Shown in pieces: positions 60,163 through 61,646 of a DNA stretch of 64,000 bases; position 1 is the stretch's first letter, and every line of letters begins with the position of its first letter. The position numbers and the translations under genes were made by a program. Source of the DNA: Escherichia virus TH38; the sequence record MT446410.1; one strand, 5' to 3'. Under the pieces are notes generated by a model. The model saw only the letters and a program-made list of their open reading frames with translations. It was not told the DNA's origin and searched no databases.

Positions 60163-60182
60163 AATTAACTCCTATTAGATTT

Positions 60183-60260
60183 GGTGGACTATCTGGAATC
60201 GAACCAGAAGCTCACTAAGAAAGTAATTCCCACTGTTATAAAAGCACTTGCCTCAACAGG
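60183..60260 (-). tRNA. tRNA-like element (T-arm plus acceptor 3' strand plus CCA); full cloverleaf not resolved by eye
   Basis: - strand TCTGG-TTCGATT-CCAGA T-arm and ...CCACCA 3' end; no matching 5' acceptor strand found by hand. Confidence 0.25.
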
Positions 60261-60303
60261 GATACACTAACTCTGGTGCCGCACCCATACTAGCCCTAAA
60301 TGT

Positions 60304-60380
60304 GGTGCGCCCTACAGGACTCGAACCTGTAACCAATAGCTTAGAAGTAAAGTTTCTATCCTTGTAATGAAGTTTTCATT
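60304..60380 (-). tRNA. tRNA-like element / possible degenerate tRNA-Arg copy
   Basis: - strand ACAGG-TTCGAGT-CCTGT T-arm, acceptor AGGGCGC-A-CCA, anticodon-loop-like CTTCTAA identical to neighbouring tRNA-Arg; 5' half does not fold. Confidence 0.25.
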
Positions 60381-60381
60381 G

Positions 60382-60456
60382 TGGCGTTCCCTCGTGGAAT
60401 CGAACCACGAATAAGAGCTTAGAAGGCTCCAGTTATATCCGTTTAACTAAGGGAAC
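60382..60456 (-). tRNA. tRNA-Arg (anticodon UCU)
   Basis: Hand-folded cloverleaf: acceptor GTTCCCT/AGGGAAC, D-stem GTTA/TAAC, anticodon stem GGAGC/GCTCT with loop CTTCTAA, T-arm CGTGG-TTCGATT-CCACG, encoded CCA. Confidence 0.7.
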
Positions 60457-60462
60457 ATTACA

Positions 60463-60813
60463 ATGAAAACTTGCACAACCTGTCACACCCAAAAGGAAGA
60501 TTCAGATTTTTACAAGAAAGGAGATCGACTTCATTCTATGTGTAAACAATGCTTCAATGCCTACTGTATTGAACGTTGGAGACAAAGAAAGACTCAAGCG
60601 GTTAAAGATTTCGGAGGTAAGTGTCATGACTGCAACCAAGAGTACCCAGATGCAGTCTTTGATTTCCACCACCTAGATCCCTCTGAAAAAGATTTTGATT
60701 GGAATAAACTTAGACTCCGATCTATTGACTCTATCAGAGAAGAGTTAAGCAAGTGCGTAATGCTCTGTGCTAACTGCCACCGTATTCGTCACATTGATTG
60801 CTCTGTCCATTGA
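60463..60813 (+). CDS. HNH endonuclease
   Basis: CTTCH...CKQC zinc finger and FDFHHLDP...CANCHRIRH HNH motif; only + strand gene within - strand block, next to tRNAs. Confidence 0.7.
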   Translation: MKTCTTCHTQKEDSDFYKKGDRLHSMCKQCFNAYCIERWRQRKTQAVKDFGGKCHDCNQEYPDAVFDFHHLDPSEKDFDWNKLRLRSIDSIREELSKCVMLCANCHRIRHIDCSVH

Positions 60814-60833
60814 GCTAAGGGTGCTAGATTTGT

Positions 60834-61043
60834 TTAACTAAAGATACGAATGGCTACATCGTGACCAATATGACCGGGAACTTTATGCTGTTCTATTTTC
60901 AAACAGTGTTTACAGATACGAGATACACGAGATTCTTTTCTCTCGACCGGAGTGTCTTTAGCGTGGGTGATATGTAGGTTCTCAGTGATCACCCACTCAT
61001 GTTTGCACTCAGAATCTTTGGGCTTTTTCTTACGAAAGAACAT
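60834..61043 (-). CDS. small zinc-ribbon protein, tandem family member
   Basis: Start at internal ATG (MFFRKKKPKDSECKHEW...ICKHC). Confidence 0.4.
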   Translation of the reverse strand: MFFRKKKPKDSECKHEWVITENLHITHAKDTPVERKESRVSRICKHCLKIEQHKVPGHIGHDVAIRIFS

Positions 61044-61051
61044 AACACCCC

Positions 61052-61216
61052 TTAGATCAGATCTGTTTTCTTGTGCAGACCACACACTTTACAGCGAGAG
61101 TAGATACGCAACCCTTGTCGCTCTCTGTCAGTAAGTTTATTTGTGATCGTCAGTTCATAAGTATGAAGATCTTCCCACTCATGGAAATGAAATAGACGTT
61201 TGAACCGTTTAATCAT
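61052..61216 (-). CDS. small zinc-ribbon protein, tandem family member (54 aa)
   Basis: By-eye ORF MIKRFKRLFHFHEW...CKVCG; RBS aagga. Confidence 0.4.
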   Translation of the reverse strand: MIKRFKRLFHFHEWEDLHTYELTITNKLTDRERQGLRIYSRCKVCGLHKKTDLI

Positions 61217-61225
61217 AATGATTCC

Positions 61226-61387
61226 TTAGATTACATCACGATGACTAACATCACCACACACCTTACACTGGATAATGTAACGTGTGCCCTTGTCATTGTT
61301 CCCATCTGAATCTGTATAGACCAGAGGACGGGTGTTAATAATCTTCCAATCATGACAATGGAAGACACGCTTTAGCCACTTGAACAT
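61226..61387 (-). CDS. small zinc-ribbon protein, tandem family member (53 aa)
   Basis: Start at internal ATG (MFKWLKRVFHCHDW...CKVCG). Confidence 0.4.
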   Translation of the reverse strand: MFKWLKRVFHCHDWKIINTRPLVYTDSDGNNDKGTRYIIQCKVCGDVSHRDVI

Positions 61388-61394
61388 ATTAACC

Positions 61395-61646
61395 TCAAGC
61401 ACAAGCAGGGAGAGTGATGATTTTATACTGACCTTCGAACTCTCCAAACAAACCCAAGAATGTAGGACTGTAAGTACCAGTACAAACAAACTCATCAAAC
61501 AGTGCGTTATAACTAGGCTTGATCTTCCAAGCCCATACATAGCCCATCTTGTCAATTGCAATGTAACGAGTGTTCAGAGGAACAGTCATCATTACACCGT
61601 CAACTTCGATCACTTTAGTGATTGGTGCAGCTTGAAAGTTTTTCAT
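61395..61646 (-). CDS. hypothetical protein
   Basis: 83-aa ORF. Confidence 0.4.
   Translation of the reverse strand: MKNFQAAPITKVIEVDGVMMTVPLNTRYIAIDKMGYVWAWKIKPSYNALFDEFVCTGTYSPTFLGLFGEFEGQYKIITLPACA

Follow-up and report, generated by a model that had tools for sequence, protein, structure and literature searches.

Organization of the tRNA locus

Escherichia virus TH38 (sequence record MT446410.1) belongs to the Kuravirus-type (phiEco32/SU10-like) podophages of E. coli, and the 64,000 nucleotides of its DNA analyzed here, referred to throughout as the window, contain a locus in which a transfer RNA (tRNA) gene for arginine, an open reading frame (ORF) for a putative HNH homing endonuclease, and several tRNA-like elements lie side by side. 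Approximately 98 related phage records match this region at 80-99% identity. Phages of this type carry one tRNA-Arg(UCU) gene each, located just upstream of a lipoprotein gene, and it is this resident gene that in TH38 has been split in two by an insertion carrying a second, intact tRNA-Arg(UCU). Every tRNA and tRNA-like element of the locus is on the minus strand of the window, and the features are as follows.

60182..60297, minus strand: element 3, a non-canonical tRNA-like RNA gene of 116 nucleotides (nt)
60195-60205: T-loop motif of element 3, GGTTCGATTCC, followed by the acceptor 3′ strand and CCA
60303..60347, minus strand: element 2, the 3′ fragment of the split resident tRNA-Arg(UCU), tRNA positions 32-76, 45 nt
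60317-60327: T-loop motif of element 2, GGTTCGAGTCC, followed by the acceptor 3′ strand and CCA
60348..60798: the whole insertion (HNH gene, cassette tRNA and spacer), 451 bp
60348..60381, minus strand: spacer inside the insertion, 34 nt, CAATGAAAACTTCATTACAAGGATAGAAACTTTA
60382..60456, minus strand: intact cassette-borne tRNA-Arg(UCU), called by ARAGORN and Rfam
60463..60813, plus strand: HNH endonuclease ORF, 116 aa, antisense to the tRNAs, with a PHROG match
60799..60824, minus strand: 5′ fragment of the split resident tRNA-Arg(UCU), tRNA positions 1-26 (acceptor 5′ strand, D arm and nt 26)

A search of the whole window with ARAGORN returns a single tRNA, tRNA-Arg(tct) at 60382-60456(-), and the Rfam tRNA model RF00005 gives the same interval 59.3 bits over model positions 1-71, the gathering score being 29; no other Rfam family reaches threshold in the window. 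Elements 2 and 3 receive no ARAGORN call at default settings and no Rfam match even at E≤10. The first-pass annotation of this DNA, made from the nucleotide sequence alone, had proposed precisely this combination of one intact tRNA-Arg(UCU) and two incomplete tRNA-like elements, and the two programs agree with it in returning one standard tRNA rather than three or none. The perfect T arms and 3′ acceptor-CCA ends that it reported in the two additional segments are present at 60317-60327 and 60195-60205, and the anticodon-loop-like CTTCTAA of the middle segment is real (60347-60341); its location for the cluster was also right, except that the final CCA ends at 60182 and not at 60183. The T-loop motif GGTTCRANTCC occurs three times in the window, in every case within 60195-60406, compared with 0.21 copies expected from shuffled windows, none of 100 of which reached three copies. 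The clustering of T-loops is real and non-random.

A resident tRNA-Arg gene in two pieces

An intact 76-nt tRNA-Arg(UCU) occupies the same locus, as an empty site, in phages SkaterBoy_Bas90, SGF2, IME267 and 101114UKE3, where it lies directly upstream of either the lipoprotein gene or element 3, and when TH38 is aligned with these relatives the exact limits of its 26-nt 5′ fragment, 451-bp insert and 45-nt 3′ fragment can be read off. The 5′ fragment (GCACCCTTAGCTCAATGGACAGAGCA, of the SGF2/IME267 allele type) aligns with nt 1-26 of the uninterrupted SGF2 and SkaterBoy genes, and element 2, which comprises the anticodon loop, the 3′ strand of the anticodon stem, the variable loop, the T arm, the acceptor 3′ strand and CCA, matches the 3′ end of the uninterrupted gene of SkaterBoy_Bas90 at 45/45 positions. 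The insertion stands in place of tRNA positions 27-31 (GTAGC), the 5′ strand of the anticodon stem. When GTAGC is restored between the two fragments ARAGORN calls a tRNA-Arg(tct), and no call is obtained when the fragments are joined without these 5 nt or by using the spacer, nor for element 2 alone (positions 1-31 missing), with or without the spacer.

It had been reported that no 5′ acceptor strand could be found for either of the incomplete elements, but both have one. That of element 3 is GGGCTA at 60296-60291, and that of element 2 is at 60824-60818, 451 nt upstream, where it was overlooked because it lies beyond an ORF and outside the interval that had been reported. The earlier suggestion that the middle element is a degenerate tRNA copy was roughly right, although it is the 3′ piece of a split gene and no decayed duplicate. 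We regard the split-gene anatomy as very well supported: the resident tRNA-Arg now exists as two dead pieces, at 60824-60799 and 60347-60303, element 2 is non-functional, and the sole functional tRNA-Arg is the cassette-borne copy.

Group I introns with endonuclease ORFs occur in the anticodon loops of bacterial tRNA genes, and since the TH38 insertion sits in the anticodon arm we considered whether the split tRNA could still work, with the 451-nt insert behaving as an intron or with the two halves being joined as RNA. We find this extremely improbable. Five nucleotides of the anticodon stem are gone and the rejoined exons are not a tRNA according to ARAGORN, Rfam finds neither a group I nor a group II intron (at the gathering score or at E≤10), the insert holds an antisense ORF as well as an entire tRNA, and the SGF2-type 5′ fragment and SkaterBoy-type 3′ fragment would mispair in the acceptor stem (A3xC70). 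A group I intron in particular was rejected on the lack of an Rfam ribozyme core and the failure of a direct exon join to rebuild the tRNA.

A second interpretation is that element 2 decayed from one copy of a tandem tRNA-Arg duplication and that the endonuclease gene is an unrelated neighbor. There are indeed two tRNA-Arg(UCU)-derived sequences side by side with the same anticodon loop, but the intact tRNA is 69% identical to the source allele of the fragment and 91% identical to a Klebsiella myophage tRNA, the missing 5′ part of the fragment is found on the far side of the HNH gene, and the HNH ORF terminates inside that 5′ part. The alignment of empty and filled sites already contradicts a duplication, which we consider highly unlikely.

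The inserted cassette

The endonuclease ORF and the intact tRNA-Arg are separated by only 6 nt, and the likely ribosome-binding site of the ORF, AAGGGAA, is the antisense of the 5′ acceptor strand of the cassette tRNA. At its other end the ORF extends into the resident gene, with its stop codon and last four codons (15 nt) lying within the 5′ tRNA fragment. The product matches PHROG phrog_2255 'HNH endonuclease' with E=3.4e-31, and alignment with the homologs of FelixO1, EF202P1 and KP12 shows conservation of a DFHH...N...CH...H motif and of four CxxC pairs. In phages Ptacy1532, Ptacy1479 and Bas92 the protein is 97-99% identical, and elsewhere no more than 53%, the closest outside homolog (~52%) being FelixO1 ORF45, which is located in the FelixO1 tRNA cluster.

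The cassette tRNA is 100% identical only in the three other carriers (Ptacy1532, Ptacy1479 and JacquesWildberger_Bas92). It matches the resident alleles at 69% (SkaterBoy type) and 64% (SGF2 type), and is 90.7% identical to the tRNA-Arg of the Klebsiella myophage KP12 (Vequintavirinae); judged by these identities, it is foreign to the Kuravirus group, and it replaces the resident tRNA. The 34-nt spacer is present and nearly identical in all four carriers. It holds a D-loop-like ACAAGGATAGA that resembles the resident D loop and stem TCAATGGATAGA and lies at approximately the right distance from the anticodon loop; it is possible that the target region was duplicated and the copy then mutated, or the resemblance may be due to chance. 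No sigma-70 promoters or intrinsic terminators were found around the locus.

Evidence for mobility and for other invasions of the locus

The filled site is present in four genomes, those being the window, Ptacy1532, Ptacy1479 and Bas92 (i.e. 3 of the ~98 related records besides the window), and there is thus an empty-site/filled-site polymorphism among close relatives, the left junction falling after tRNA nt 26 in every carrier. From that junction to the CCA of the 3′ fragment the four carriers are at least 97% identical, whereas to the left of it they are not of one kind: the window has an SGF2-type 5′ fragment and a different upstream gene, Ptacy1532 and Bas92 have SkaterBoy-type 5′ fragments, and Ptacy1479 has an L011-type 5′ fragment. 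All four carriers accordingly have the same donor-type 3′ fragment with three allele types of 5′ fragment, as seen in comparative data and not in a cross. Ordinary recombination following a single insertion would only rarely be expected to place three breaks within a few nucleotides of the junction, and these sequences fit better with a series of invasions into different resident alleles, in which co-conversion carried the donor sequence across the 3′ side.

The same position has been invaded independently at least once more. In Bas91 (L014:640-1200) the first 19 nt of the resident tRNA are followed by an unrelated HNH_3 endonuclease (phrog_14913, 140 aa), which overlaps a third type of tRNA-Arg(UCU). 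The TH42 record, labeled 'UNVERIFIED', has no callable tRNA at the locus (L015:1040-1200) and contains relics only, these being a D-armless tRNA-like element flanked by a 10-bp inverted repeat (AAAGCTCTTA/TAAGAGCTTT) and a 27-nt 3′ fragment of a Bas91-type tRNA. In Klebsiella phage KP12 a phrog_2255 HNH gene and the related tRNA-Arg lie inside another split tRNA-like gene, of which approximately 40 related Klebsiella phages have the uninterrupted form; the KP12 HNH ORF is intact (140 aa) but unannotated in its record, and its last codons overlap the 5′ end of the tRNA-Arg. The KP12 features are at L007:1092-1514 and 606-680, and ARAGORN reports a 'tRNA-???' with a 2-nt anticodon in this cluster.

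The resident gene itself is unusually diverse. Among phages with ~90% identity otherwise, this position is filled by no fewer than five tRNA-Arg(UCU) alleles, which are very different from one another (L001, L004, L010-L013, L016, L017), and their anticodon stems (GTAGC, GCGAC, TCGGA, ATTTC and GATTT) differ everywhere but always pair. All ten anticodon-stem columns vary with compensation among the resident alleles, the anticodon loop is invariant, and most of the T arm is constant. The most variable region of the tRNA-Arg, the anticodon stem, is also the exact site of the insertion, and this variation fits with selection to escape cleavage.

Element 3, a tRNA-like module downstream of the tRNA

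Element 3 has tRNA-type ends and an interior that is not tRNA-like. Its acceptor stem is formed by GGGCUA (60296-60291) pairing with UAGUCC (60191-60186), its T arm is UCUGG-UUCGAUU-CCAGA, and A73 is followed by an encoded CCA (60184-60182). When the acceptor and T arm are enforced, the 82-nt interior forms two hairpins, one small and the other long and imperfect (-32.1 kcal/mol). Numbered back from the encoded ACCA, the first pairs are G1-C72, G2-C71 and G3.U70 with A73, and the G-C, G-C and G.U pairs are invariant in all carriers; an alternative 7-bp register of the acceptor shifts the G.U to 4:69. A G3.U70 pair in the acceptor together with A73 constitutes the identity set for alanyl-tRNA synthetase. 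The acceptor end of element 3 matches this set, which we mention as a lead and not as a result.

The conservation of element 3 sets it apart from its surroundings. Using blastn it is found in 29 Kuravirus/Suseptimavirus records at ≥97.6% identity and nowhere else among the databases searched. In the six phages compared it is always 116 nt long and 97.4-100% identical with no indels, and the 330-nt flanks on either side are 70-95% identical. Between the window and IME267 the divergence is 1.7% in element 3 and 19.4% in the flanks (Fisher p=1.5e-7), and in six of seven flank comparisons the Fisher p values range from 1e-5 to 1e-9, with TH42 vs UKE3 giving p = 0.17. The edges of this island of conservation are sharp, identity falling right at both ends of the element, which is kept beside four upstream arrangements and two downstream genes. 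Element 3 is absent from ~70% of the relatives, and the boundary between presence and absence is flanked by a direct repeat, CACCA, one copy belonging to the 3′ end of the tRNA and the other to that of element 3 (60182-60303; L002, L004, L003); in Ptacy1479 a 249-nt ORF is present in its place. On this evidence the site just after the tRNA CCA is a swap point for modules.

Searches for the origin of element 3 led to the rejection of several candidates. Relaxed ARAGORN searches (80% threshold, intron mode) give only poor and implausible partial models. A tRNA with a simple insertion was rejected, as 0/2703 single-deletion variants are called and interior-shuffled controls give 0 to 15 calls. 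A transfer-messenger RNA (tmRNA) was examined using ARAGORN -m, which gives 0 genes at a relaxed threshold, and there is no match to the Rfam tmRNA clan or, at E≤10, to any Rfam family. A remnant of an endonuclease gene was also dismissed, the GAGTTAG..TA.CCCT in common with the start of the Bas91 endonuclease ORF being not significant (p=0.16-0.25), and comparisons with T4 rnaC/rnaD, the KP12 region and the TH38 cassette itself yield only generic T-loop matches. A host origin was rejected because blastn matched the element to none of 5,426 E. coli genomes. Divergent copies were sought in IMG/VR with two patterns and in JGI metagenomes with a 36-mer, with no match in either, and a degenerate 24-mer search gave one unrelated match.

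We favor the view that element 3 is a separate module with tRNA-type ends (paired acceptor, canonical T arm and encoded ACCA) and a non-tRNA interior, which is most likely transcribed with the tRNA and would be trimmed by tRNA-processing enzymes to a stable small RNA, in the manner of T4 RNAC and RNAD. The pattern of conservation points to a constrained tRNA-like RNA, or to a module that has spread very recently, and away from a free-running pseudogene; a functional RNA is the best reading, if an unproven one. Of the possibilities raised by the first-pass annotation, a tRNA 3′-half mimic or degenerate copy does not hold for this element, since its ends are paired and its conservation is far above that of its flanks. 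The alternative proposal of a real tRNA with unusual structure is partly borne out, in that a structured tRNA-like RNA fits best, although the element fails every tRNA test run.

The most serious competing explanation, which we consider unlikely but not negligible, is that element 3 is a functionless scar, a dead tRNA gene that lost its middle part to an insertion and a deletion at some earlier time. Scars of this sort abound at the locus, the 3′ 28 nt of the element match a Jiaodavirus (T4-like) tRNA-Gln (27/28 aligned, with one gap), all of the tRNA finders and Rfam models refuse it, and ~70% of the relatives do without it. A scar would nonetheless be hard to reconcile with an element that is approximately ten-fold less diverged than both of its flanks, free of indels and exact at its edges; moreover, a single internal deletion never restores a tRNA (0/2703), and the interior has no significant similarity to endonuclease genes or leaders.

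It is improbable, in our estimation, that element 3 is instead conserved as DNA, whether as the recognition or landing site of a homing endonuclease, as a hotspot of recombination, or because a phage-specific promoter or operator of the downstream lipoprotein gene lies in it. SegB-type enzymes do read the T-loop motif in DNA (PMC2330249), and element 3 borders a recombination hotspot, its flanks differing on both sides. Set against this, the limits of conservation are those of a unit with paired ends of tRNA type and an encoded ACCA, 116 invariant nucleotides are more than a protein site would need, and the element contains no sigma-70 promoter. The phiEco32 gp36-type motif TAATGTATA is likewise absent from element 3 within one mismatch, and occurs at chance frequency in the window.

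A proposed homing mechanism

In TH38 a mobile cassette, made up of a foreign tRNA-Arg(UCU) and, on the other strand, a free-standing gene for an HNH homing endonuclease, has inserted into the anticodon stem of the resident tRNA-Arg, between nt 26 and 32, with loss of GTAGC. Comparative data and precedent argue strongly for a homing mechanism. During co-infection the HNH enzyme would cut or nick the intact tRNA-Arg of cassette-free relatives, a step proposed by analogy with SegB, its homologs and the T5 enzymes discussed below, and repair off the cassette-bearing genome would then transfer the HNH gene together with its replacement tRNA and the donor 3′ fragment. The carrier would be immune, because its own target is split and its working tRNA is of a different sequence. 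The replacement tRNA would also remove the fitness cost of losing the tRNA that reads AGA; this codon accounts for 20% of arginine codons and 10.9 per 1000 codons in the long ORFs of the window, a usage at which an AGA-reading tRNA is plausibly beneficial.

Taking the locus as a whole, the best explanation is that an HNH/tRNA cassette has split the resident tRNA-Arg and that element 3 is a constrained tRNA-like RNA, and we put the probability of this combined reading at roughly 70%. Several observations weigh against it. On the side of the cassette, HNH cleavage, homing and expression are all predicted by analogy; the Pfam HNH model PF01844 is not significant on the ORF (E=0.82), no homolog of solved structure is found for the protein by sequence, and no sigma-70 promoter is predicted for the antisense gene. 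The window and KP12 HNH proteins are 31% identical (E=2e-11) and the genes have opposite orientations relative to the shared tRNA, so that the history is a more mosaic one than the transfer of a single unbroken cassette would give. The 13-nt AGCCTTCTAAGCT is common to the cassette tRNA and the resident allele, and the immunity of the replacement tRNA is for this reason only assumed. The cassette model does not account for the 34-nt spacer.

For element 3, the unconstrained minimum free energy is -37.7 kcal/mol, placing the tRNA-like fold 5.6 kcal/mol above it, a thermodynamic z-score of only -2.0 was obtained, and the acceptor stem is 6 bp long rather than 7. There are only three single-nucleotide polymorphisms among the carriers and 0 compensatory pairs, which gives no covariation support for any fold and leaves none that covariation can test. 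The near-identity of its copies could also reflect recent lateral spread and not selection.

A more elaborate form of this interpretation is that element 3 represents a new class of phage tRNA-like RNA, processed by RNase P and at its 3′ end, charged with alanine by way of its G3.U70/A73 acceptor, and acting in trans as a decoy or competitor against a tRNA-targeting host defense or a tRNA-binding enzyme, with the hypervariable, fully compensated anticodon stems of the resident tRNA-Arg alleles recording an arms race with endonucleases that cut at that very place. We offer this as speculation of low probability, but if true the decoy-RNA reading would make element 3 a tractable stand-in for T4 RNAC/RNAD.

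Neighboring ORFs and a D-armless tRNA-like gene in other phages

Upstream of the tRNA locus are three consecutive small ORFs that appear to be paralogs (window 60834-61085, 61052-61216 and 61226-61561, all on the minus strand), with an N-terminal F(K/R)W(F/L)KR.FH.H.W and a C-terminal, zinc-ribbon-like C(K)xCG...(D)xI. Relatives have other numbers and versions of these paralog-like ORFs beside the tRNA.

A distinct tRNA-like gene of ~82 nt that lacks a D arm is present in other phages, and the following copies were located; there is none in the window.

L019:408-489, Klebsiella phage Seu621
L020:~700-781, Felixounavirus EF202P1
L021:499-580, Salmonella jumbo phage 7t3
L015:1059-1137, Kuravirus TH42, where it sits in the tRNA-Arg slot

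Its acceptor is followed by UA, UCUCA and an invariant CUUCUAA (UCU) loop, the anticodon stem covaries (ACGGG/CCCGT, GCGGT/ACCGC, ACGAG/CTCGT, CCCGT/ACGGG), and a long variable region containing GGAG-N3-AUG precedes a normal T arm. The 5′ 50 nt are found in 178 phage records (T5-like, rV5-like, jumbo and FelixO1-like), in which pipelines label the gene 'tRNA-OTHER', 'tRNA-TERM' or nothing, and there is no default ARAGORN call. The annotated N-terminus of FelixO1 ORF45 (L008:1456-1848; L020:795 onward), MRVRVLPPRP..., is the translated T arm and acceptor of this gene. The AUG in the variable region of the RNA shares its reading frame with the HNH ORF, whose start would otherwise be 14 nt past the CCA; the annotated N-terminus reflects either a wrongly annotated start or a genuine overlap between an RNA gene and an endonuclease leader.

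Implications

If the proposed events took place, orphan 'half tRNAs' in phage genomes could be explained as footprints of homing-endonuclease invasions, and annotators would do well to seek the other half of the tRNA across the endonuclease gene. The cassette would also be a selfish element that pays for its own damage by importing a substitute tRNA. Because tRNA genes are alike even in unrelated phages, they can serve as portable landing sites that move endonucleases and tRNAs between phage families, here linking Kuravirus, Vequintavirinae and Felixounavirus. The locus, which holds no fewer than five tRNA-Arg(UCU) alleles, endonucleases of two families and a number of scars, offers a compact natural system for studying the co-evolution of endonucleases and their targets. 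Element 3, being short, strongly conserved and present in an easily handled group of coliphages, could illuminate T4 RNAC and RNAD, which have gone unexplained for 50 years.

Comparison with known systems

The association of endonuclease genes with tRNA genes is already known. Neither a tRNA split by an endonuclease cassette that imports a replacement, nor element 3, is described in the literature searched.

The T4 tRNA region resembles the TH38 locus in that a free-standing homing endonuclease gene directly adjoins tRNA-Arg(UCU) and is followed by non-tRNA stable-RNA genes, the order being segB, tRNA-Arg, rnaD (119 nt) and rnaC (139 nt, with a T arm). RNAC and RNAD, the 'species 1 and 2' stable RNAs, are encoded immediately downstream of tRNA-Arg in the same transcription unit, and their role is still not known (PMC3014915). 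T4 rnaC has a canonical T arm (GGTTCGAATCC), and element 3 shares its position, a similar size and a tRNA-like 3′ domain. Alignment scores of element 3 with rnaC and rnaD nonetheless lie within the shuffle distribution (p=0.27-0.36) and T4 is not among the blastn matches; element 3 further differs in having a 6-bp acceptor with G3.U70/A73 and an encoded CCA, and is known here from sequence alone. Counted from the encoded ACCA, element 3 resembles tmRNA and tRNA-Ala in joining a G.U third pair, A73, CCA and a canonical T arm, with no normal anticodon arm; unlike tmRNA it is only 116 nt long, with no pseudoknots, no credible tag frame and a 6-bp acceptor.

SegB of T4 recognizes the T-loop motif and cleaves the tRNA genes of relatives that lack segB, leading to preferred inheritance of the region, with co-conversion (PMC2330249). 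SegB homologs are strongly enriched beside tRNA genes, and co-localization of endonucleases and tRNAs is widespread (PMC13096335). SegB is a GIY-YIG enzyme, whereas the window enzyme, known from its sequence, is an HNH protein of phrog_2255; segB lies between intact tRNA genes, whereas the HNH gene is on the opposite strand and inside the tRNA gene that it split, and in TH38, unlike T4, a whole replacement tRNA travels with the endonuclease. The T5 HNH enzymes F-TflI/II/IV are encoded among tRNA genes, as summarized in PMC2330249 with reference to Akulenko 2004. T5 and FelixO1 are like the window in having free-standing HNH genes interspersed among phage tRNA genes, and in FelixO1-like phages the HNH homolog starts 14 nt after a tRNA-like gene; they differ in that these genes lie between tRNA genes, and no host tRNA gene is split or replaced.

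The splitting itself has a parallel in a protein gene. In Aeromonas phage Aeh1, mobE, a free-standing HNH gene, reportedly splits nrdA into 'genes-in-pieces' (Friedrich et al. 2007), so that there, as in TH38, an HNH gene inserted in a phage gene leaves two pieces. The protein pieces of Aeh1 are said to reassemble with function kept, whereas the RNA pieces in the window are dead and the imported copy supplies the function.

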